A DNA stretch of 63,280 nt from contig WALU01000018.1 in the NCBI GenBank assembly GCA_015522685.1, positions 1 through 63,280 of the forward strand, in the 5' to 3' direction. This stretch comes from Thermoproteota archaeon. Lineage in GTDB: Archaea; Korarchaeota; Korarchaeia; Korarchaeales; Korarchaeaceae. The notes beneath the pieces are model-generated. The model saw nothing but the letters and a program-made list of their open reading frames with translations, made no database searches and was not told the DNA's origin. Both the position numbers and the translations under genes were made by a program. Below, piece by piece: positions 17,356 through 28,297 of the stretch (position 1 is the first letter of the stretch; every line of letters starts with the position of its first letter).

Positions 17356-19287
17356 ATGGAAATACCTCCTGTAATAATCTTGGCAGCTGGAAAAGCAACG
17401 AGAATGAAACCCTACTCATCAGAGGTGCCTAAGGCTCTCTTTGAGCTTGTACCTAATCTGACAGTTCTCGATCTTACCATTAGGTGGTTAAAAGAGGAGG
17501 GAATTAAAGATATAATCGTGGTCACTAGGCCCAGTCTATTAAGGTTTTTCGTAGAGAGATATGAGAAAAATGTGAGAGTAATCGCTACAGATAAGGAGGA
17601 AGGATTTGGTAATTTGTATTCCATGCTCGCAGGAATAAGAGAAGTAGACTCATCAGAATACCTAGTTCTAATGTCAGATCATATTTTCGAGCTAGAGATA
17701 CTCAGGAGAATACTCAAGAGGGGAGGAAGGAAAGCATTTACCCTATCTCTAGATAGAAACCCTCCTTGGGATAAACTAGAAGAGGGGCTGAAGGTAGTTC
17801 TAGAGGGGAATGAGATAAAGGAAGTTGGGAAGGGTGCCATACCGCAATATGGCATAGACACAGGTATATTCTACTGCTTCGATAAGGCTCAAAATATAGT
17901 AGAGGAAACCTTAAGAGAGCTAGGTCCAACGGCGACAATAGAGGATGCTCTCAGAAGGGCAATATCTCGGCAAGAAATTTCCTATGTTGATGTGACTGGT
18001 CTCCTCTGGATGGATGTGGATACTCCGGAGGAGCTGGAAGAAGCTAGGAGAATACTACCCTCAATTCTTAAGAGGAGCTTGGTGAAGCCAGGTGATGGGC
18101 CCATCTCTAGGTATGCGAATAGACCTATATCGACTAGAATCTCGGTATATATGTTCATGAGAGGCATATATGTGAGCCCTAACCTGATTTCAGCAATATC
18201 TTTCCTCCTAATGGTCGCATCAGGCCTCCTGATGTATTGGAATCTTCTGATACCAGCGGCCATCCTAATTCAGCTATCATCCATAGTAGATGGCATGGAT
18301 GGAGAGATGGCTAGGTTATTCCAGGCAACCAATAAGTTTGGTGGGCTACTAGATTCATTCCTAGATAGATATTCAGATCTCATTGTAATAGGAGCCATGG
18401 GGACAGCATTAAGCTTCAGTACAGCTTGGCAGGTAATGATTTATACCATAGCAGCAGGCAACGTTTTCATCACGAGCTACGTATCTCATCTAGCCGGATG
18501 GAGATCGGAAAAGGTACTCAGAGCTAGAGAATGGAGCCCGGCTAGTAGGGACGCTAGATTACTTACTGCTGCTATTCTTACGCCATTTGGCTTATTCTGG
18601 CCCTTTATATGGTATATGGCTATCATCCCTCTCACATTCTCACTTTACATGCTGATGGAAGCTAAGTCTCCAAGGAAACCTCTGAAGCTCAAAAGGAGGA
18701 AGCCTTATCCGGAGGTCAAGGTTAGAAGGATAAAGAGGAAGGTTACTCCTTTAGAGGCAAATATAAAGATTCTTCTCTCTTCATCGGTAAAGCTCCTTCT
18801 ATGGATACTTATATTGAGACTTGTTTATCGCATATTTGCAGATATGGGTCCTGTGGAGCTGCTAGAATTCTCAATAGAACCATCTTACATTTTCTATCTG
18901 GCTGAGCTCATTGGAGTGATATACTTCGGTTATAGGATACTCTTATCCACGAAATTCCTCCTAGATTCTCTCTCAAAGTGGCTATCAAGGGAGATGTATT
19001 TAGTAACAGAGGTAGCTGTTAGAAGGGCCCTAGCTGATATATTCTACTTGGCTCTCCTCTCTCTCCTTATATGGTTCGTTCCTAGCTATTTAGAGGCTCT
19101 TCCTCTAGGAGGTATACTCTCGAAGACAATACTCGCAGCTCTTCTATTTCTATTCCTAATATTCTTCTACGACCTAGCTAAACTATTTTACAGAAGCTTC
19201 AAGGGATTCTTCGATAGGCAGATAGCAAGAATTGCCGAGAAAATCTCGGCTATGGCAGAGGAATCCGAGGAAATGAACGATAATTGA
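17356..19287 (+). CDS. Bifunctional CTP:inositol-1-phosphate cytidylyltransferase / di-myo-inositol phosphate phosphate synthase with extra C-terminal membrane domain
   Basis: ILAAG..TR...PK, MSDH, DTG, WMDVDT; KPGDGPISR..NRPIS; CDP-alcohol motif DGMDGEMAR...GGLLDSFLDRYSD. Confidence 0.85.
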   Translation: MEIPPVIILAAGKATRMKPYSSEVPKALFELVPNLTVLDLTIRWLKEEGIKDIIVVTRPSLLRFFVERYEKNVRVIATDKEEGFGNLYSMLAGIREVDSSEYLVLMSDHIFELEILRRILKRGGRKAFTLSLDRNPPWDKLEEGLKVVLEGNEIKEVGKGAIPQYGIDTGIFYCFDKAQNIVEETLRELGPTATIEDALRRAISRQEISYVDVTGLLWMDVDTPEELEEARRILPSILKRSLVKPGDGPISRYANRPISTRISVYMFMRGIYVSPNLISAISFLLMVASGLLMYWNLLIPAAILIQLSSIVDGMDGEMARLFQATNKFGGLLDSFLDRYSDLIVIGAMGTALSFSTAWQVMIYTIAAGNVFITSYVSHLAGWRSEKVLRAREWSPASRDARLLTAAILTPFGLFWPFIWYMAIIPLTFSLYMLMEAKSPRKPLKLKRRKPYPEVKVRRIKRKVTPLEANIKILLSSSVKLLLWILILRLVYRIFADMGPVELLEFSIEPSYIFYLAELIGVIYFGYRILLSTKFLLDSLSKWLSREMYLVTEVAVRRALADIFYLALLSLLIWFVPSYLEALPLGGILSKTILAALLFLFLIFFYDLAKLFYRSFKGFFDRQIARIAEKISAMAEESEEMNDN

Positions 19288-19326
19288 GTGTCACCATAGC
19301 GTTGAGGTTATATTTTCCTCCATCAA
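19188..19326. repeat. Direct repeat copy 1 (IPCT 3' end plus downstream intergenic DNA)
   Basis: 19188-19238 matches 22910-22960 at 50/51 nt; 19296-19326 is identical to 22985-23015. Confidence 0.95.
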
Positions 19327-19936: not shown

Positions 19937-20992
19937 CTAACTTGAAATGATTCTCACGGCTGCTGCCTTCACTGATAATGTAAATTTCTTTCCCTTAGCT
20001 ATCGAGAGTTCTTCTAAAGCTTGCTTAGTCACAACCGATCTTAGAAGAACTCCCTTTACATTAAAAGTGACTAAATATGCTGAATTTCTGTATTCTATCT
20101 CTTCGACAATCCCCCTAAATATATTTTGGGCACTCATGCTACCCATCTTACCATGTACGTATACATCCTCGGGTCTTATCATCACTAACGTCTCATCTCT
20201 TCCATTATATATGGAAAAAAGTTCTAATTCACCTATCTTAACCCTCGTAAGGCCGCCCTTAGTGCCTATAATCTTCCCATGGTAAATATTCTCCCCACCA
20301 ACGAAGCGAGCCACTCTCCTATCTCTTGGATACGTGATTATATCATCCAAGGTACCAGCTCTCACTATCTTCCCATCATACATAATCGCCATCCTATCAG
20401 CCAGATAACTCGCTTCTAAGAAATCATGAGTAACATGGATAGCCGTAAATCCTATCTTTGAATGAATTTTCTTCAGGAATCGCTGTAACTCGGATTTGAT
20501 AACCTTATCTAAGGCAGAAAGAGGTTCATCCAATAGCAAAGCTCTAGGCTCCACTACTAAAGCCCTTGCCAGCGCAACTCTCTGTTGCTCTCCTCCGCTC
20601 AATTTACTTGGTTTTCTTTGGAGCAGATATTTTATCCCCATGATCTCTGAGACCTCCCTAACATTTGAGAATATTTCAAGATCTTTGTAGCCCCTAATTC
20701 TCAATCCAAAGGCTATATTATCGTAAACCGTCATGTGGGGAAATAAAGCATAGTTCTGAGGGACATAACTGAGATTCCTTTTTTCAGGAGGTAATTCCGT
20801 AGCATTCCTTCCATCTATAATTACTCTACCTTTTCTCGGCTTAACTATCCCCAGAATGGTCTGTAAAAGAAGAGTCTTACCAGCTCCTGATGGACCCATA
20901 ATAACAATGTATTCTCCCTTCTTAACCGAGAGATTTATTTCATCAAGTTTAAACTCCCCCAGGTCTACGCAGAGGTCCCTTAGCTCTATCAA
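19937..20992 (-). CDS. wtpC: Tungstate/molybdate ABC ATPase with TOBE domains
   Basis: GPSGAGKT, LSGGEQQRVALARAL, HVTHD, SAQNIF TOBE; in operon with wtpA. Confidence 0.88.
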   Translation of the reverse strand: MIELRDLCVDLGEFKLDEINLSVKKGEYIVIMGPSGAGKTLLLQTILGIVKPRKGRVIIDGRNATELPPEKRNLSYVPQNYALFPHMTVYDNIAFGLRIRGYKDLEIFSNVREVSEIMGIKYLLQRKPSKLSGGEQQRVALARALVVEPRALLLDEPLSALDKVIKSELQRFLKKIHSKIGFTAIHVTHDFLEASYLADRMAIMYDGKIVRAGTLDDIITYPRDRRVARFVGGENIYHGKIIGTKGGLTRVKIGELELFSIYNGRDETLVMIRPEDVYVHGKMGSMSAQNIFRGIVEEIEYRNSAYLVTFNVKGVLLRSVVTKQALEELSIAKGKKFTLSVKAAAVRIISS

Positions 20993-20993
20993 T

Positions 20994-21764
20994 TTATCTC
21001 CTCCCAGAAAACCTCCTTATAAGAACGAACGTTGTCAAACTTATTACAAGAAGAGGAATTGCTGTCGCCTTCGCTACTTGAAGTCCATAGGTCCAAAATC
21101 TCTCCATTATAAGTACGTTTATCGATTTAGGATAGTAGGCGACTATAAGCAAGGCACCAACCTCGCTCATTCCCCTAGCCCATGAGAGGAGCGATCCTGT
21201 CACCAGAGATCTGGAAGCCAGTGGGAGAGTTATTCTCCAAAATGTTTCAGATTCTGAAGCACCTAGACCCCTAGCGACATGCTCTAGATCAGTATCTACA
21301 CCTGAGAATCCATCTATAAGGGCATCTACCATTAAGGGAACTGAAACGAAAGCCATGACAGACACTATACCCCAAAATGAGTCCTCAAGCTTCATGCCCA
21401 AGTTTGAGAGTATAAAGCCAAGTGGAGTTCTTGAGTTAAAGGCAACTAGCAATGCTATACCAGCCACTCCATGAGGAATGACAAAAGGAAGGTCGACTAG
21501 GGCCTTTATCAAATCCCTCCCCTTAAAATCCCTCCTAGTTAGGAGATATGCCAGAGGAACTCCTGATATAATAAGAAGTACAGTTGCTATTATTGAAGCT
21601 GAAATCCCTATATAAAGCGCATAAAGAGCTTCACTATCGAGCCCATATTTAACTATCTCCTGAGAGGATGTACCTAATAGGAGTGAGGCGAGTGGAACTA
21701 CTATAAAAGATATTAAGAGGAGGGCCAGGGCAGCAAAACCCTGAATCATCCTTAAACTAGGCAA
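20994..21764 (-). CDS. wtpB: Tungstate/molybdate ABC permease
   Basis: DLPFVIPHGVAGIAL, ARGLGAS (EAA loop), WARGMSEVGA, AYYP. Confidence 0.88.
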   Translation of the reverse strand: MPSLRMIQGFAALALLLISFIVVPLASLLLGTSSQEIVKYGLDSEALYALYIGISASIIATVLLIISGVPLAYLLTRRDFKGRDLIKALVDLPFVIPHGVAGIALLVAFNSRTPLGFILSNLGMKLEDSFWGIVSVMAFVSVPLMVDALIDGFSGVDTDLEHVARGLGASESETFWRITLPLASRSLVTGSLLSWARGMSEVGALLIVAYYPKSINVLIMERFWTYGLQVAKATAIPLLVISLTTFVLIRRFSGRR

Positions 21765-21765
21765 A

Positions 21766-22758
21766 TTAGGGATTCACCTTTACTACATCCTTTATCTCGC
21801 TTGGGATATTGCCATATGCCAAAGGAGGCCTCACAGGTGGTTGCCCTGTCTCCTTAAATACATCAAGTCCCTTCGTAAGTAAGAACCTGATGAACTTTAA
21901 GGCTTGTTCTCTATTCTCAGCTACTTTAGTGACCGTAAGTCCATAGGCTATGGGGGCTCCTGTAAGCACTTTCTCCTTTTCAGATCCAGAGAATATATGA
22001 ACCTTAACTTTAGAGTAAACTTTAGCTAGGGCAGGAGATCCCATATTTATTTCAGGAGGTAGCTGCATATATTTCAGCCTATGCTGAACAGCAACGCTCT
22101 TGTATTCGAAAGCATAATCGAGGACACCAGCTTCCAGTAAAGAGAGGAGTTCAACGCTCTTAGGTCTTATGACTATACCCTTTCCCTTAATCTCTATGGG
22201 ATCCGGAACCCATGCTTCCATTCCCTTCACTTTGATATTAGTCTCGTTCATTAATAATTGATCCAAAGGCTTATTATAATATTTAGATGATAGTAAGAGG
22301 GTTATTACACTTCTATATCCACAAGGATCCTTATTTGGATCAGAGAAACCTAACTTCACATCTCCCTTCATTATGATGTCTGGCCAATTCTTCTCATTTA
22401 TTTCGCTAGCGTACTTACTTTTATTCGTGTAAGTGAGAACTATCTCATTGGTAGCGAAGATCACGTACCAATCCGCATATTTTGGATACATCATCTTTGG
22501 AATCAGCCTATAGTCCGCTGATGCTAGTATATCTGCTCTCTTTCCCAGCTCGGTTATCTTTCTAACTGCCTCTACACTGCCGCTTCCCTCAAGCCTTATT
22601 TCAACTGCTTTATCTGGATACATACTTATTATCTTTTGTAAGGGCACTGTTAGGGATCCAGCATGGAAGACTGTAATTGCACTTGGTTTGCTCTTAATTA
22701 GGAATGGCAGTGCAGCTAATATAACAATCACTATTAAAACCAATATAATCTTCTTCAT
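21766..22758 (-). CDS. wtpA: Tungstate/molybdate-binding protein WtpA
   Basis: FHAGSL, GSVEAVRK, ASADY, SDPNKDPCGYRS, RPKSVEL, YAFEYKSVA. True start MKKII at 22758 after SD GAGGTGA. Confidence 0.9.
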   Translation of the reverse strand: MKKIILVLIVIVILAALPFLIKSKPSAITVFHAGSLTVPLQKIISMYPDKAVEIRLEGSGSVEAVRKITELGKRADILASADYRLIPKMMYPKYADWYVIFATNEIVLTYTNKSKYASEINEKNWPDIIMKGDVKLGFSDPNKDPCGYRSVITLLLSSKYYNKPLDQLLMNETNIKVKGMEAWVPDPIEIKGKGIVIRPKSVELLSLLEAGVLDYAFEYKSVAVQHRLKYMQLPPEINMGSPALAKVYSKVKVHIFSGSEKEKVLTGAPIAYGLTVTKVAENREQALKFIRFLLTKGLDVFKETGQPPVRPPLAYGNIPSEIKDVVKVNP

Positions 22759-22781
22759 AGAGATCACTAGCTCACCTCGCT

Positions 22782-22803
22782 GGTTATCCGATATCGGATA
22801 ACC
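22782..22803. promoter_or_regulatory. Perfect 22-bp palindromic operator upstream of wtpA
   Basis: GGTTATCCGATATCGGATAACC lies between a TTTAAAAA TATA-like box (about 22826-22833, minus strand) and the SD. Confidence 0.8.
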
Positions 22804-22909
22804 GATCATGCATTCCCTATATTATTTTTAAAATTTGCGGTAGCGCCACGCATCTAGACTAAGAATCATTATGGCATAATGAAATTTATATCTTCAATAT
22901 CGCACGCGA

Positions 22910-23085
22910 TTACAGAGGCTTCAAGGGATTCTTCGATAGGCAGATAGCAAGAATTGCCGAAAAATCGCGCGCTACAGCAATTCTATAGCGTTGAGGTTAT
23001 ATTTTCCTCCATCAACTTATGATAAATGCTCATCTTAAGGATCTGCAATTATATAGTCAGGTAACTCTCTATTGAGATAGATGAT
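22910..23085. repeat. Direct repeat copy 2 (IPCT 3' fragment plus deleted remnant of ORF 19339)
   Basis: Matches copy 1; ATTGAGATAGATG near 23071 also echoes ATCGAGATAGATG near 19462. Confidence 0.9.
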
Positions 23086-23214
23086 TGATCAGTCCTCCAA
23101 GCTCCTTATCTCCAAGTAAGTATAAGGATCAAATGATCTGATTTGTTATATTATTGACATGAATTGAAGTTTTCGTAATCTCTTCAGTATAATTCCCATG
23201 ACTATTTTGAAAAC

Positions 23215-23415
23215 AAGAATACCCTCCCTCTCATATTATACATGATCAATCCCCTGATTGCTGCTAGCTCTGAAACTAAAGAAGAAAATGCTTTTAATAT
23301 TCTTTCTTAGATCTTCAGGATCTCCGGCCCCTATGAACAGTAAAATAGGGCCTATGTCATGCGACCTCGGATATTCAATGGCCAAAGCCCTAAGTAAAGA
23401 TTTTACAGCCATTCA
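23215..23415 (-). pseudogene. HEPN-domain gene remnant
   Basis: Minus strand reads MAVKSLLRALAIEYPRSHDIGP and, after a frameshift, LVSELAAIRG..MY, both typical archaeal HEPN segments. Confidence 0.65.
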
Positions 23416-23654
23416 AGATTATCTAAAGAGGATTTAACCTTATCTAAGCACGATAGGGAGCTTTAAGATAAGTTGCATATATCTCCAAGTTAATCAAATT
23501 TCTGTCACATCCCTCAGCTTGACATTCGGCTTAAGGATTCAATACCATCTTTCCTTCACCTTCCCCTCTCTCCACTCCAATGCTCAAGAGAGCCAGTAGC
23601 GCTGGTCGAAACAAAGCAGGAGTAGTGGTAGTGGAAACGGAAGCAATTGAGGAG

Positions 23655-24452
23655 CTACATCCGTTCGATCTTTGTCGTCAAATTAAGGGGCTTAGCGTAG
23701 TAAGGTGAGCTTGTGATGATAATATCCGCGAGCTGAGCATAATCTCCTATGTTCGTCTCATTTATGTCTCCAGCAACTGCTATCCTCACCTTTGGATTGA
23801 TCTTCCTCAGCTTAGGCACGAGTCCTCTAAGCTCTTCTGGTGCAGAGTGATCGAGCAGAAGAAGATCTGCCTTTAGAGCGAGGCTTAATGATCCTTCTGC
23901 ACTTGATGGCTCGATTTCAATACTCCTCAATGTTTCGAACTCTGGGGGTTCACCGGAAACTCTCAAGTGATTCTGAGTTATCAGAATTGAATCACTCAAT
24001 GAATTCCTGTGAAATGTCCCTCCACCAGCTCTTACAGCTTTAAGTTCGAAGTAACGCATCCCTGGATGGGTCTTCCGCGTTGTTGCGATTATTACATTCG
24101 GGTTGACCCTTCTTGCAATCCTGACTAACTTCTCCGTCGCTGTTGCTATCCCAGAGGTTATCGAGAGGAGAGTCTGACTTACACGCCAGACTTTGAAAAG
24201 TGTTCTAAGGATCCCGCGGGCGACTATGATTGCATCTCCTGGCCCGAACTGTATACCACTCGGTAAAAACTCTACGCTAAGGCCTTTGAGTTTCAGCCAC
24301 TCCACAAGCTCCTCAGTGCAAGCAGAAACTCCATCCTCACGAGTAAGGATTTTCATGGTACCTTCTCCTTGAATCCTAAGAAGTTCAGCTGTCTCATCAA
24401 AGTAGGGACAATCCTCATCAAGATAAAGATCAAGGAGATGAAGTGGATTCAT
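23655..24452 (-). CDS. modD: ModD protein (NadC/QPRTase-like)
   Basis: EDCPYFDET, SGIATAT, ATTRKTHPG, HRNSLSDSILITQNH; last gene of a modABC operon. Confidence 0.85.
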   Translation of the reverse strand: MNPLHLLDLYLDEDCPYFDETAELLRIQGEGTMKILTREDGVSACTEELVEWLKLKGLSVEFLPSGIQFGPGDAIIVARGILRTLFKVWRVSQTLLSITSGIATATEKLVRIARRVNPNVIIATTRKTHPGMRYFELKAVRAGGGTFHRNSLSDSILITQNHLRVSGEPPEFETLRSIEIEPSSAEGSLSLALKADLLLLDHSAPEELRGLVPKLRKINPKVRIAVAGDINETNIGDYAQLADIIITSSPYYAKPLNLTTKIERM

Positions 24453-24453
24453 C

Positions 24454-25512
24454 TTATCCTATCACCCTCACGCTTGATGCCTTGAACATAATATAGAGCT
24501 TCACTCCTTCCTTAATTCCAAGGAGTTCGGCAGCGTTCAGTGTTATCACAGCTCTCAATGTTAATCCTTCAACATCAAGAGTTAGCCAAAGAACATGACC
24601 GCGTTTTTTAACTTTTACTACCCTCGCAGGGAGAACATTTCGAGCGGAGTACATCCCTAATTCACGGGTGAGAATTATAGCCTCTGGACGTACAGAGAGT
24701 GTTACTTCCGCTCCTGGTTCTGCGACTTCTGTAGTGTAAATCGCAATATTACCAATACTGATAGTGGTAATATTACTACTCTCAAGAACTCTTCCATGGA
24801 AGAAGTTCGTGCCAACAAAGTCGGCAACAAAATCACTCGTTGGTTTGCAAAAAATCTCCTCAGGTGTTCCTTCTTGGACGATTCTCCCATCCTTCATTAC
24901 TGCAACTCTATTCGCGAGGGAGAAGACATCCTCAAAATCATGAGTGACATGGATAACTGTCGTGCTGTAGTCCTTCACAGCTTTTTTCACCATTGAACGG
25001 AGTTTCTCTCTTGTCTTCTCATCTAAGGCAGAGAATGGCTCATCCATCAGTAGCATTTTCGGTCTTATCACAAGAGCTCTTGCTATTGCTACCCGCTGCT
25101 GCTCACCGCCACTCAATGTTTTCGGCTTTCTATGGAGGAGTTGATCGATGCGGAGTTCCCTCGATATAGTCCTGACTTCTCTCTCGATTTCAGCTCTTGA
25201 CAGAGCTTTTTTTCTTAAGCCGAAGGCGATGTTGTCAAAGACGTTAAGGTGAGGGAAAAGCATGAAGTCTTGGTAAACTATACTCATGCCGCGATTCTCC
25301 GGCGGTAATGCCGTAATGTTTCGTCCAGCGAGAGTTATCTTCCCAGATTTGATGGGGTAAAAACCTGCTATTACCTCAAGGAGAACTGACTTACCGGCTC
25401 CTGTCGGCCCGATTATTGTGAGGTAATTATTCTTCTCTACGGTCAGAGAGACATCACGGAGGTGAAACTCACCAAGGTTTATGTTTAGATCTTTAACCTC
25501 TAACAGAGACAT
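24454..25512 (-). CDS. modC: Molybdate ABC ATPase with TOBE domains
   Basis: GPTGAGKS, LSGGEQQRVAIARAL, SARN, FKASSV. Confidence 0.88.
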   Translation of the reverse strand: MSLLEVKDLNINLGEFHLRDVSLTVEKNNYLTIIGPTGAGKSVLLEVIAGFYPIKSGKITLAGRNITALPPENRGMSIVYQDFMLFPHLNVFDNIAFGLRKKALSRAEIEREVRTISRELRIDQLLHRKPKTLSGGEQQRVAIARALVIRPKMLLMDEPFSALDEKTREKLRSMVKKAVKDYSTTVIHVTHDFEDVFSLANRVAVMKDGRIVQEGTPEEIFCKPTSDFVADFVGTNFFHGRVLESSNITTISIGNIAIYTTEVAEPGAEVTLSVRPEAIILTRELGMYSARNVLPARVVKVKKRGHVLWLTLDVEGLTLRAVITLNAAELLGIKEGVKLYIMFKASSVRVIG

Positions 25513-26290
25513 TTTTACTACCTTCTAACCTCTCAAAGATGAGTATTGCTGTGAAAGACACAATAATAAGCATTATACCACTCGTTATTGCCATTCCTAT
25601 ATTACCATAGGAGATGTTTAAGTAGAGAGTCACTGGCAGGATTTCGGTGTTCATATAACTTCCACCAGCAAGGATTAGAACTGATCCGAATGTGCCCACC
25701 GAACGAGCGAAGGCGATTATTGTCGAGGCAAAGAGGCCACTTCTAGCCATTGGGAGCGTTACTTTCCGGAAAGTCTCGAACTCGCCATAGCCAAGGCTTC
25801 GCGCGACGAGCTCGTAGCGCTTGCTAATACTCTCGAAGGCAGTATAAATGACCCTAGCGGTGTAGGGAAGAGCCGTAAAGAACTGAGCGACAATTATTCC
25901 GAGCTTTGTGAAGACGACATTGATTCCGAGGCTGTTCAGGGCTCCGCCAAAGGTAGTTCTTCCGAATAGAAGAAGCAGCGCTAAGCCGAGCACAAGCTCT
26001 GGGAAAGCCATGGGTAAATCAAGAATTGACTTGACAGCGCTTTTTCCATAGAAATCGAAGCGTGAGAGAGCATAGCCTATCGGAATCCCAAAAAGCATGA
26101 CTAAAAGTGTTGATATCGAGGCCGTTACGAGAGAGAGCTTGAGAGAGTAAGCCATCTCCTCAGATTTTATTGATTCTATTATCTCATTAGGTTTTGGAAT
26201 GAGGAAAAGCGTTGTTATAGCAGCGAAAAGGAAGAGCGCAAATAGAAGCGCGATAAAAATTGTAAAGAGACGGAAGCTCAGCCTTTCCAT
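25493..26290 (-). CDS. modB: Molybdate ABC permease
   Basis: DLPMAFPELVLG, AQFF, ARSLG, FARSVGTFG. Likely start MERLSF at 26290. Confidence 0.88.
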   Translation of the reverse strand: MERLSFRLFTIFIALLFALFLFAAITTLFLIPKPNEIIESIKSEEMAYSLKLSLVTASISTLLVMLFGIPIGYALSRFDFYGKSAVKSILDLPMAFPELVLGLALLLLFGRTTFGGALNSLGINVVFTKLGIIVAQFFTALPYTARVIYTAFESISKRYELVARSLGYGEFETFRKVTLPMARSGLFASTIIAFARSVGTFGSVLILAGGSYMNTEILPVTLYLNISYGNIGMAITSGIMLIIVSFTAILIFERLEGSKNVSVRG

Positions 26291-27114
26291 GGCTGGAACC
26301 CCCACTTCTTCCATATCTCAGTGTGATTGGCGATAAAGCTGTTGAATTCTTTGGCTGCTTTAATATGATCGTTATTCTTCGCACAAGATGTTACAGCCGT
26401 CGGAATGGTTTTTATGAGGTTCTGCTCTGGAGGAATCCGAATCACCTCAATTTTACCTTTTGACTGAGCCCATGTTGTCATGTCCTCCCAGATTATAGTG
26501 GCATCGGCCTGCCCAGTCACGATGTAAATAAGGAGTTGATTAACAGTTGGAGTAAATGTAACAACATTTTTGCTCACATTTTTCCAGAGGTCCTTCTTTT
26601 CAAGGATTTTCTTATCCACTTTACCAATAGCACAAGCCTTTGGATCACCGAGGACAACCCTAACGCTAGACTTCGCAAGATCCTGTAGAGAGCGTATATT
26701 CCCCGGGTTACTAGCTGGAACAGCTATTACTGGTATATGTTTGGTTACGTTAATTACAGTGCCTTTGAGAATATAACCCTTCTTCATTGCCTGCTGAGTA
26801 TAGTACCATGCGCCAGGGATGAAGACATCGCAGCCACAGGTCGTCTGGAGGACTCCAAAGATTTCACTGCTTCCACCATAATGTACCTCTATTCTCACTC
26901 CTGTCTTATTCTCGAAGAGCGAAATTAGATCATTCATCGGCTTCATCAGGCCAGCGCCAGAGCAGACGACAATTGATTGTTCAGTGGATGATCTCGAAGT
27001 TAAAGTTCCAGTGCTGATTGGTTTTTCCACACTTCTATGTCCTACTACGAATATTATACCAAGAAAAAAAGCAATTACTACTAAAACCAGCAGAAGCTTC
27101 CTTATAGAGAGCAT
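26278..27114 (-). CDS. modA: Molybdate-binding protein ModA
   Basis: GAGLMKPM, YGGS, DVFIPG, GDPKACAIG, PTVNQL. True start MLSIR at 27114 after SD GGAGGTG. Confidence 0.85.
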   Translation of the reverse strand: MLSIRKLLLVLVVIAFFLGIIFVVGHRSVEKPISTGTLTSRSSTEQSIVVCSGAGLMKPMNDLISLFENKTGVRIEVHYGGSSEIFGVLQTTCGCDVFIPGAWYYTQQAMKKGYILKGTVINVTKHIPVIAVPASNPGNIRSLQDLAKSSVRVVLGDPKACAIGKVDKKILEKKDLWKNVSKNVVTFTPTVNQLLIYIVTGQADATIIWEDMTTWAQSKGKIEVIRIPPEQNLIKTIPTAVTSCAKNNDHIKAAKEFNSFIANHTEIWKKWGFQPWKG

Positions 27115-27128
27115 TAGACCACCTCCTC

Positions 27129-27149
27129 GGTTATCCGATATCGGATAAC
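27129..27149. promoter_or_regulatory. Second copy of the palindromic operator, upstream of modA
   Basis: GGTTATCCGATATCGGATAAC (20-bp perfect core), in the same position relative to TATA and SD as the wtpA copy. Confidence 0.8.
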
Positions 27150-27262
27150 TAATCATGCCCATTCCTATTATTTTAAAAACTTATGGTAATATCATCCATC
27201 CAAGTCAAGTAATGGTTCGAAATGCGATGAAATTTATATCTCTGATATTCCCTGAAGCTTGA

Positions 27263-28297
27263 ATGGATAATCACGAAGAACTGAGAGTAGAGATCGATAT
27301 AAAGCTCCTCAAGGGTAGTATGATAATACTGGATAAACAATCAGCCCACCTTCTTAGGGCAATATCAAGAACAGGTTCACTTCTTGCTGCATCTAAACTT
27401 CTAGGGATGCCCTATTCTAAAGTTTGGAGGATTGTAATGAATATTGAGAGGAAATTTGGTCATAAGATAATAGCCCCTAGGAGAGGAGGCAAGTTAGGAG
27501 GAGGGACAAAGTTAACTGAATCGGGGAAAAAACTTCTTAGCATATACTCAAGGCTGGAGGAAACATATGGGATAAGTAGAGGACCCCTAGGTGATGTAAC
27601 GAAGATAATAAGGCCTGATCTCGTTATAATGGGCAGTCATGACCTCCTAATTGAGAAGCTTGTATATCTTGTCAGGAAAAAGGAGGAGAGAGAGGTAGAA
27701 GTTCATTGGATAGGATCCTATGGTGGTCTGCTATCTCTCTCGCTGGGAGAGGCCGATATATCTGGAATCCATCTCATGGATCCTAAGACCTCCCAGTATA
27801 ATGTTCCAATAGTGAAGAACATGTTTCCCAAGGGAGTAGCCCTCTTCAGAGGATTTGATAGGGAGGTAGGGTGGGTTTCCAGGGGAAATTTTTCCCCAGA
27901 GCGTTTACTTGAAGGAAAGGCTAGATTGGCCAACAGAAATAAGGGATCTGGAACTAGAATACTCATAGATAAGATCTTGGCGGAGCTATCTGAAGGGAAA
28001 GAATTTAGGGAGATGATCAGAGGATATGATGTAGAATACTTTACACATACAGCCACATGCAAGGCTATTGCTGAGGGAAAAGCAGATGTAACAATATCTA
28101 TAAGGCCTGTAGCTGAGATATTTAATCTCAAGTTCAAGAGGATACTCTGGGAGAGCTATGATCTAGCTGCAAGAGAAGATATCATAAGCAAAGAAGCTGC
28201 TAGGCTTTTTCTGAGGATGTTATCTAGTGATAATCTCATAAAAATAGCTAGGAGGGGTTATAGAATACCTAAAAATGCTGGGGAACGTATAATATAA
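27263..28297 (+). CDS. ModE-like wHTH plus periplasmic-binding-like (PBP) domain transcriptional regulator
   Basis: LLRAISRTGSLLAASKLLGMPYSKVW...RGGKLGGGTKLT (ModE N-terminus); GSHD, GSYGGL, GIHL, NRNKGSGTR (MoeA-associated PBP domain). Confidence 0.88.
   Translation: MDNHEELRVEIDIKLLKGSMIILDKQSAHLLRAISRTGSLLAASKLLGMPYSKVWRIVMNIERKFGHKIIAPRRGGKLGGGTKLTESGKKLLSIYSRLEETYGISRGPLGDVTKIIRPDLVIMGSHDLLIEKLVYLVRKKEEREVEVHWIGSYGGLLSLSLGEADISGIHLMDPKTSQYNVPIVKNMFPKGVALFRGFDREVGWVSRGNFSPERLLEGKARLANRNKGSGTRILIDKILAELSEGKEFREMIRGYDVEYFTHTATCKAIAEGKADVTISIRPVAEIFNLKFKRILWESYDLAAREDIISKEAARLFLRMLSSDNLIKIARRGYRIPKNAGERII

Follow-up and report, generated by a model that had tools for sequence, protein, structure and literature searches.

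In the contig WALU01000018.1 of a Thermoproteota archaeon (Korarchaeaceae, assembly GCA_015522685.1), analysed here at its full length of 63,280 nucleotides as the window, a palindrome of 22 bp precedes two operons of tungsten (W) and molybdenum (Mo) oxyanion transporters, wtpABC and modABC-modD, and is probably the operator of the regulator encoded divergently beside its second copy (27263-28297). The regulator and the site occur together, or are lost together, in the related archaea, and it is this cross-species comparison, and not the divergence of the flanking DNA within one genome, that gives the operator its real support.

The Palindrome in the Window and in the Genome

The perfect 22-bp palindrome GGTTATCCGATATCGGATAACC is matched exactly at 22782-22803, and none of 100 shuffles matched the 22-mer; the second copy, at 27129-27150, is identical in 21 of the 22 positions, with the last base, T, as the sole mismatch, so that the 20-bp core GTTATCCGATATCGGATAAC is exact in both copies (27130-27149 in the second). 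The first-pass annotation, made from the letters of the DNA alone, had placed one palindrome between the TATA box and the Shine-Dalgarno sequence of both wtpA and modA, and this layout is confirmed: the common order on the minus strand is a TATA-like run of the TTTTAAAAATAATA type, about 17 nt, the palindrome, the Shine-Dalgarno sequence GAGGTG directly after it, and the start codon 4-5 nt further on, followed by a hydrophobic signal anchor.

The genome-wide motif scan that the annotation had proposed was made in the own assembly of 1,477,694 bases in 63 contigs (92% complete), where up to three mismatches were tolerated and only the two window sites were returned, and a reversed control pattern gave zero matches across the assembly. 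The matches of a degenerate motif at C20:18369 and C3:7416 in the whole genome lie within long open reading frames (ORFs) and were treated as chance. The consensus across the relatives is cGTTAT(C/T)C-N6-G(G/A)ATAACg, the window form of which is cGTTATCC-N6-GGATAACg. In the own genome, the regulon predicted for the regulator-site pair consists of the two transporter operons only.

Co-Occurrence of the Site and the Regulator Gene

The genes of the regulator, wtpA, modA and the tupA-like binding proteins were located in 61 genomes, of which 42 have at least one readable upstream region, and these regions were scored for the best match to GTTATYC-N6/N7-GRATAAC, a site being a match with at most two mismatches. 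The site was found in 24 of the 27 genomes carrying the regulator (21 with the N6 spacer and three, all of genus g2, with N7) and in none of the 15 genomes lacking it, where the best match had three mismatches; this contrast is not a formal test, because the motif was defined on the same genomes that were later counted and the genomes are kin, the positives coming mostly from three genera, so that the counts overstate independence. The 27 carriers comprise 24 full-length regulator genes and three that are cut by a contig end or interrupted. As a background, 4 of 920 other upstream windows of the own genome reach two mismatches. The pairing of a candidate operator with the adjacent regulator, as it had first been suggested, is supported in that the motif before the Mo/W transporters tracks the regulator, and footprinting near the orthologous regulators, where the absence of the motif had been named as the refuting outcome, found the motif present.

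The joint loss is seen in one genome (G001), where the regulator gene beside wtpA is an internally deleted pseudogene, consisting of an N-terminal stub and frameshifted C-terminal pieces, and the palindrome at the same locus is partly deleted, with its centre lost. The same element emerged when every 5-mer dyad with a spacer of 0-14 nt was counted without bias in the 27 upstream regions, the top dyad being GTTAT-N10-ATAAC (exact in 8 of 27) and the next ones mostly nested registers of the same 22-bp palindrome; the top dyads, except TTATT-N8-AATAA, are missing from all 15 upstream regions of genomes lacking the regulator and turn up in no more than 1 of 3000 background windows.

Conservation of the Site Across Relatives

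Scanning of the 61 genomes with the 20-mer found its variants in 11 of them, including the own one, at 13 loci, of which two are the own sites, nine are found a short way before binding-protein genes of the relatives, and two (L003 and L013) are inside long ORFs and were treated as chance. The variants precede wtpA in G008, G013 and G019, and a tupA-like gene in G005, G009, G020 and genus g3, the tupA-like products being PBP_like_2 proteins whose best NCBIfam match, TupA, reaches about 165 bits, below its cutoff of 400. The palindrome, the same or a variant, thus stands 25-88 nt before the start of wtpA, tupA-like or modA, that is, before three unrelated classes of binding-protein genes. Five further genomes (G012, G014, G015, G016 and G017) contain regulator orthologues of about 55% identity divergent to wtpA, and in their palindromes the outer arms and the length are kept, with the inside symmetrically changed from CC..GG to TC..GA, as in GTTATTCAAAAATGAATAAC.

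The search for more distant loci, seeded from an alignment of nine regulator sequences, found homologues of 35-45% identity beside wtpA, with related palindromes of the GTTAT..ATAAC type, such as GATATCCGGTACCGGATAAC in a metagenome-assembled genome (MAG) labelled Pyrodictiaceae and GTTATCGGATAGCTGATAAC in one labelled Thermoproteaceae, and three further distant loci have a GTTATCCGATAAC-like core with a poorer fit to the 20-bp frame.

Some variations of the theme were observed along the way. In genus g2 (G031, G021 and G025; L147-L149), the palindrome before the tupA-like gene has a 7-nt centre, GTTATCTC.....GAATAAC, 21 bp in all, so that the family as a whole does not keep to one spacing. 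In genus g3, ATTATCCGGTATCGGATTAT or its one-base variant stands just before the regulator's own start (G022, L031; G026, L034), which suggests that the regulator may be autoregulated there, unlike in the window. The outgroups without the regulator (L137 in G042, L138 in G040, L151 in G049, L153 in G044 and L155 in G055) have, upstream of wtpA or the tupA-like gene, a dyad of the CGATATG...CATATCG kind, which is closer to the classical ModE box, and in some of these genomes a short ModE-like helix-turn-helix (HTH) gene adjoins the transporter.

The Regulator Protein

The gene adjacent and divergent to the second site had been taken to encode a ModE-type winged HTH with a sensor domain resembling a periplasmic binding protein (PBP) and without molbindin domains, and the domain searches bear this out. 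The N-terminal domain matches TIGR00637, the ModE_repress domain, at E 1.8e-18 and 66.4 bits, short of its curated cutoff (98.5), and HTH_1 of Pfam at 29.4 bits against a cutoff of 26.6; among the ModE chains of the PDB, it matches 2ijl (E 2.3e-10), 1b9m from E. coli ModE (E 4.9e-07) and 1o7l (E 9e-07). The sensor part, residues 138-320, matches PF12727 at 157 bits and E 4.2e-46. The Pfam scan of the protein returned these two domains only, with no Mop/TOBE and no HTH_17, and no match to LysR_substrate (PF03466) was found at E up to 0.001. In the own genome, the TOBE domain occurs only in the two ATPases of the transporters, of the ATP-binding cassette type, and only two genes have a ModE-type HTH, both fused to PBP_like. 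The sensor domain contains invariant GSHD and NRNKGSGTR motifs, which are candidate ligand contacts.

The AlphaFold model of the regulator (mean predicted local distance difference test score, pLDDT, 88.6) has as its best Foldseek matches the full-length LysR-type transcriptional regulators 8sbf, CcmR (5y2v), BenM and OxyR, with probability 1.0 and TM-scores of 0.35-0.50, and the predicted fold is, because of these matches, that of a winged helix, a linker helix and a type-2 binding-protein fold. The prediction of a homodimer scored 0.50, against 0.00 for the best control; such a score is attained by 20 of 30 proteins whose structures were solved as pairs, compared with 1 of 23 for those solved as single chains. 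The runs agreed in at least 74% of the contacts, with a partner pLDDT of at least 83. The predicted symmetric interface is formed by residues 6-18, 22, 94, 98 and 102, all in the DNA-binding domain, and a dimer joined in this way would fit a twofold-symmetric site; the pass may, however, only reflect likeness to ModE dimers, since these have already been solved.

Relation to Known Regulatory Systems

The consensus of E. coli ModE is given as ATCGNTATATA-N6-TATATANCGAT (PMC545781), while ModE of M. acetivorans, composed of an HTH and one Mop domain, is described to bind RTTATGT-N8-RCATAAY in gel shifts and to repress the vnf and anf operons, with predicted sites also before two molybdate transporter operons (PMC12327845). 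With these proteins the window regulator shares the homologous N-terminal winged helix, through which its dimer is also predicted, and a palindromic candidate operator with CGTTAT-type half-sites before Mo/W transporter genes, as in the accounts of PMC545781 and PMC12327845. The resemblance to ModE boxes that had been claimed at the outset is therefore sound for the CGTTAT half-site and breaks down for the geometry, the GTTAT/ATAAC arms being 10 nt apart here and 12 nt apart in the E. coli and M. acetivorans consensus as reported there (PMC545781; PMC12327845). The window regulator differs further by its lack of a Mop/TOBE molbindin domain, PF12727 being the sensor, and by its overall fold, which is like that of the full-length LysR-type regulators; a ModE-like half-site with an un-ModE-like geometry fits a different C-terminal domain.

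The tungstate-responsive TaoR/TupR of sulfate reducers, presented as proteins of an HTH_17 and a PBP-like domain (PMC11980592, PMC10102598, PMC12327845), likewise have the PF12727 sensor fused to a DNA-binding domain; by the same accounts, they control genes of tungstate or molybdate transport, a role that genomic context and co-occurrence would suggest for the window regulator. However, TaoR is bacterial and the window regulator archaeal, and the two are set apart, as far as the descriptions go, by the DNA-binding domain, HTH_17 in TaoR (PMC11980592) and the ModE/LysR-type HTH_1 here. The LysR-type regulators share the HTH_1 winged helix, the linker helix and the type-2 binding-protein fold, but the effector domain here is PF12727 and not LysR_substrate, the HTH scores better as the ModE type, and the operator is a compact 22-bp perfect dyad. 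PF12727 is also found in the archaeal MoeA1-PBP fusions, where it has been proposed to capture tungstate or molybdate (PMC11733289). It corresponds to the C-terminal part of PRK14498 (residues 114-343 of the regulator match frames of about 660 amino acids) and is joined there to a cofactor-insertion enzyme instead of a DNA-binding domain. VnfR1 and VnfR2 of Anabaena variabilis differ in being cyanobacterial and in regulating V-nitrogenase genes, and their molybdate-binding domain is ModA/PBP-like. They are characterized as Mo-dependent repressors with an N-terminal HTH and a molybdate domain unlike that of ModE (PMC12327845, PMC4284476). A paper on the comparative genomics of Mo (PMC6147048) is silent on regulators. 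The architecture of the window regulator has already been noticed by annotators, as is clear from database entries named, for example, 'molybdate transport repressor ModE-like protein'; in the literature, no description of a ModE-HTH/PBP_like regulator or of its operator was found, although a paper outside the searched library is possible.

The own genome contains a paralogous HTH_1/PBP_like regulator of 353 amino acids, 38% identical to that of the window (36% by tblastn), at C49:60395-61456 (L124 3896-4957). It is divergent to an operon of a 1212-amino-acid molybdopterin oxidoreductase with a twin-arginine translocation (Tat) signal, a 4Fe-4S subunit and a cytochrome b-like subunit, and the related palindrome GTTATTATAATTGTGATAAC at C49:59987-60006 (L124 3488-3507) lies 114 nt before the oxidoreductase start; G019 and G003 have similar sites in the corresponding position. 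A conserved ORF of about 45 amino acids is located between the paralogue and the oxidoreductase promoter (L124 3616-3753; also L166 in G019 and L164 in G003), with an acidic N-terminus, a basic C-terminus (..PEDEFALEELMFPERSKCRKKG..) and no Pfam match. The Rfam scan of a stretch beside the paralogue that looked poor in ORFs gave nothing; the stretch holds the 1212-amino-acid gene.

Transporter Operons and Promoters

Downstream of site 1 follow wtpA, a permease gene and the gene of an ATPase with a TOBE domain, and downstream of site 2 modA, a permease gene, the gene of a TOBE-carrying ATPase and that of a ModD-like protein (Table 1). The wtpA product scores 416 bits with the WtpA equivalog model NF003196 (cutoff 355), and the modA product 84 bits with TIGR01256 (cutoff 62.5). 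Three tungstoenzymes of the AOR family are encoded in the own genome, and therefore the organism has a use for tungsten.

By the usual geometry of archaeal promoters, transcription of both operons is expected to begin with the first bases of the palindrome, since the centre of the TATA-like box is about 25 nt upstream of that edge. Longer ORFs starting at 22809 and 27162 were rejected as true starts because they span the palindrome and open ahead of the point where transcription is expected to begin. The regulator transcript is probably leaderless, the centre of its TATA-like block being about 25 nt before the ATG at 27263, and its promoter would probably not be occluded by an occupied site, being about 85 bp away from the palindrome.

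Table 1. Coordinates of the features in the window.
Feature	Positions	Strand	Remarks
Operator candidate 1, perfect 22-bp palindrome before wtpA	22782..22803	.	exact match, 0/100 shuffles
Operator candidate 2, 21/22 copy, between modA and the divergent regulator gene	27129..27150	.	sequence match
Regulator, 344 residues: ModE-type winged helix (about residues 23-101) and PBP_like PF12727 (138-320)	27263..28297	+	
TATA-like block, divergent regulator promoter	27227..27241	+	15/15 identical to the orphan block 22879-22893
TATA-like box, wtpA promoter	22818..22833	-	read from the sequence; kept in the duplicate and in G019/G013
TATA-like box, modA promoter	27166..27179	-	sequence; aligned with the wtpA TATA
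Shine-Dalgarno GAGGTGA, 4 nt before the wtpA GTG start (22767)	22772..22778	-	sequence
Shine-Dalgarno GGAGGTG, 5 nt before the modA ATG start (27114)	27120..27126	-	sequence
wtpABC operon	19937..22767	-	wtpA 21766-22767, wtpB 20994-21764, wtpC 19937-20992 (TOBE domain)
modABC-modD-like operon	23655..27114	-	modA 26278-27114, modB 25493-26314, modC 24454-25512, modD-like 23655-24452
Cassette copy 1: orphan divergent TATA, TATA, operator, Shine-Dalgarno, start, about 14 signal-anchor codons	22725..22893	-	
Cassette copy 2, now driving modA	27072..27241	-	local alignment

The Duplicated Cassette and the Probably Foreign modABCD

Both sites belong to one duplication of about 170 bp, 22725-22893 against 27072-27241, with 131 of 176 aligned columns identical (74%, local alignment), or 110 of 154 (71%, by hand count from the alignment) outside the palindrome. 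The shared segment includes a block identical in 15 of 15 positions, which serves the regulator gene as its TATA box at site 2 and is orphaned at site 1, then the TATA box, the palindrome, the Shine-Dalgarno sequence, the start codon and about 14 codons of the signal anchor. The exactness of the palindrome amid diverged flanks had been read as a sign of selection; the 20-bp core is indeed exact, but the argument is weak for two sites of a single duplication. A 21-column run of identity is expected about 0.04-0.08 times under uniform substitution (own calculation), and the run inside one duplication is therefore only marginal evidence of selection within the genome.

Among 35 genomes of the same family, none encodes a homologue of the window ModA at E 1e-15, and the closest named homologues of this protein are the ModA proteins of Thermococcus, with 69-76% identity. 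The likeness starts near residue 46, and the first 45 residues look like the anchor of the native WtpA and have no lipobox of the Thermococcus kind. The modABCD genes were thus probably acquired horizontally from a Thermococcus-like source. In G019 and G013, the closest relatives with the regulator (74% identity), the regulator gene and wtpA are immediate divergent neighbours, separated by a stretch that holds the exact 20-mer, and the simplest history would be that a Thermococcus-like modABCD landed between the regulator and wtpA and then was joined to the copied cassette of promoter, operator and signal.

The surroundings of site 1 contain other traces of copying. The stretch 22911-22995 (+) is a near-identical partial copy of 19190-19290 (+), the copied part being the last 18 codons and the downstream sequence of a CDP-alcohol phosphatidyltransferase (DIPPS-like) gene that is intact at 17839-19260 and that, in G020, G009, G011 and G002, stands immediately before the regulator. 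No ORF of at least 60 amino acids is present in the 845 bp from 22810 to 23655, and the region is a patchwork resulting from rearrangement.

Proposed Mechanism and Alternative Explanations

For this pair, we infer physical binding by a dimer, a ligand, and repression rather than activation. A symmetric dimer, joined via the N-terminal domain, would sit on both CGTTAT half-sites of the 22-bp dyad. The bound site would cover the point, shortly after the TATA box of wtpABC and modABC-modD, where transcription is expected to begin, for which reason its occupation would block the recruitment of RNA polymerase. By a logic like that of ModE, tungstate or molybdate would fill the cytoplasmic PF12727 sensor, the regulator would then bind, and the uptake would be switched off when W/Mo is sufficient. 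Given that the site is the regulator's operator, repression with the oxyanion as a co-repressor is moderately likely on these analogies. The second site would have come with the copy of the 170-bp wtpA cassette joined to the transferred modABCD, and the foreign transporter would thereby have been placed under the resident W/Mo control.

Besides the kinship of the genomes and the origin of the motif, a number of observations weigh against this interpretation. Two genomes (G030 and G033) are without the palindrome though a 35%-identical regulator is divergent to their tupA-like gene, and the best site of G036 has three mismatches despite the regulator. G012 has the site intact with an in-frame TAG in its regulator gene, and G003 has a perfect site and yet only 40%-identical regulator paralogues. 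At 8 of 9 distant loci with a tupA-like gene and a homologue, the motif was unrecognisable, with best matches of 4-5 mismatches (the distant loci bear the labels Methanomethylicus, Methanomethylicia, Methanomethylicota, Nitrosopumilales, Nitrososphaerales, Nitrososphaerota, Thermoproteota and Bathyarchaeota). The half-sites are 2 bp closer than in the ModE boxes. M. acetivorans ModE and TaoR are both reported to bind DNA in vitro without a response to the metal (PMC12327845), because of which the ligand logic is not to be taken for granted. The sequence is contained in one DNA run, from a hydrothermal vent metagenome, and no RNA run is listed as containing it. The tupA-type promoters, finally, carry the site on the upstream side of TATA, a position also used by archaeal activators.

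The regulator may accordingly bind the site as an activator, turning the uptake on at low W/Mo in its apo form, or may respond to another ligand, such as a pterin cofactor intermediate, which is unlikely. Archaeal activators often sit immediately upstream of TATA, and the tupA-type palindrome stands in just this place, before the conserved TATA-like GAATATAAGTAAC, as does that of the Pyrodictiaceae locus, which also precedes a TATA-like run. However, the window sites and all the wtpA-type sites are downstream of TATA and over the expected start, which is the classic repressor position, and a site abutting TATA would also cover the transcription factor B (TFB) recognition element and block TFB. 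The fusion of PF12727 to MoeA, a molybdopterin-handling protein (PMC11733289), would suit another ligand. Against an activator, modABC is repressed by ModE (PMC545781, PMC12327845). A real operator with another reader, either the C49 paralogue or an unrelated factor, is quite improbable: a second ModE-HTH/PBP_like gene does exist in the genome and G003 keeps its perfect site with paralogue-type regulators only, but the paralogue adjoins its own, different palindrome GTTATTATAATTGTGATAAC and the molybdopterin oxidoreductase operon, whereas the window regulator is divergently adjacent to the site and adjoins wtpA in G019, G013, G014-G017 and the distant MAGs, and in G001 it was this regulator and the site that decayed together at one locus.

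It is very improbable that the palindrome acts at the RNA level, by a hairpin at the 5' end of the wtpA and modA mRNAs that serves stability or translation, with the regulator unrelated. Most of the palindrome would be transcribed in the own genome from the start expected at its edge, and a stem of 8-9 bp would then form, the 53-nt stretches having folding energies of -14.9 kcal/mol (z-score -1.7) and -19.2 kcal/mol (z-score -3.3). The stem, however, leaves the Shine-Dalgarno sequence free, and the tupA-type element should not be transcribed at all, because it is upstream of the conserved TATA-like box, the sequence further upstream being unconserved. Moreover, the half-site CGTTAT...ATAACG is kept across species while the centre is variable and sometimes non-complementary, as at the Thermoproteaceae locus, and the presence of the site tracks the regulator gene. 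A protein-binding site is thus favoured, since the arms are kept as sequence, the centre is free, and both the tupA-type position and the tie to the regulator gene point the same way. That the palindrome is functionless and its second copy a mere by-product of the recent duplication is hardly credible, even though both sites lie inside that 74%-identical segment and their identity is only marginally beyond chance; against this, the palindrome is kept across genera, before non-orthologous genes and at different promoter positions, and the flanks of the cross-species sites do not suggest copies of one mobile sequence.

Implications

The control proposed belongs with the ModE and TaoR kind of metal-responsive regulation and is not a new principle. 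However, the sensing of W and Mo is little known in archaea outside methanogens, ModE of M. acetivorans (2025) being the only tested archaeal case in the literature searched, and the window adds a concrete candidate pair of a regulator and a site for a widespread and unstudied protein architecture. The motif is usable for predicting W/Mo regulons in the uncultured hydrothermal Thermoproteota, and the sensor PF12727, common to MoeA1 and TaoR, is a candidate for the discrimination of tungstate from molybdate. The modA promoter is a clean example of a transferred transporter wired into the host regulation through a duplicated cassette of promoter, operator and signal peptide.

Taken jointly, these features might mean, and this is offered only as a tentative and rather doubtful reading, that Thermoproteota and scattered other archaea have an undescribed class of W/Mo sensors, in which a ModE winged helix is fused to a cytoplasmic binding-protein domain, the operator is shorter than the ModE box by 2 bp, and the tasks and half-site preferences are split between paralogues. 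If so, the paralogue acting through GTTATCC-N6-GGATAAC would gate the oxyanion uptake via the wtp, tup or mod transporters, and the one acting through GTTATTA-N6-TGATAAC would control a Tat-exported molybdopterin oxidoreductase, so that the pair could tell the supply of tungsten from that of molybdenum. The operator would then also be portable, a foreign modABCD having been brought under control by the copying of one 170-bp cassette.

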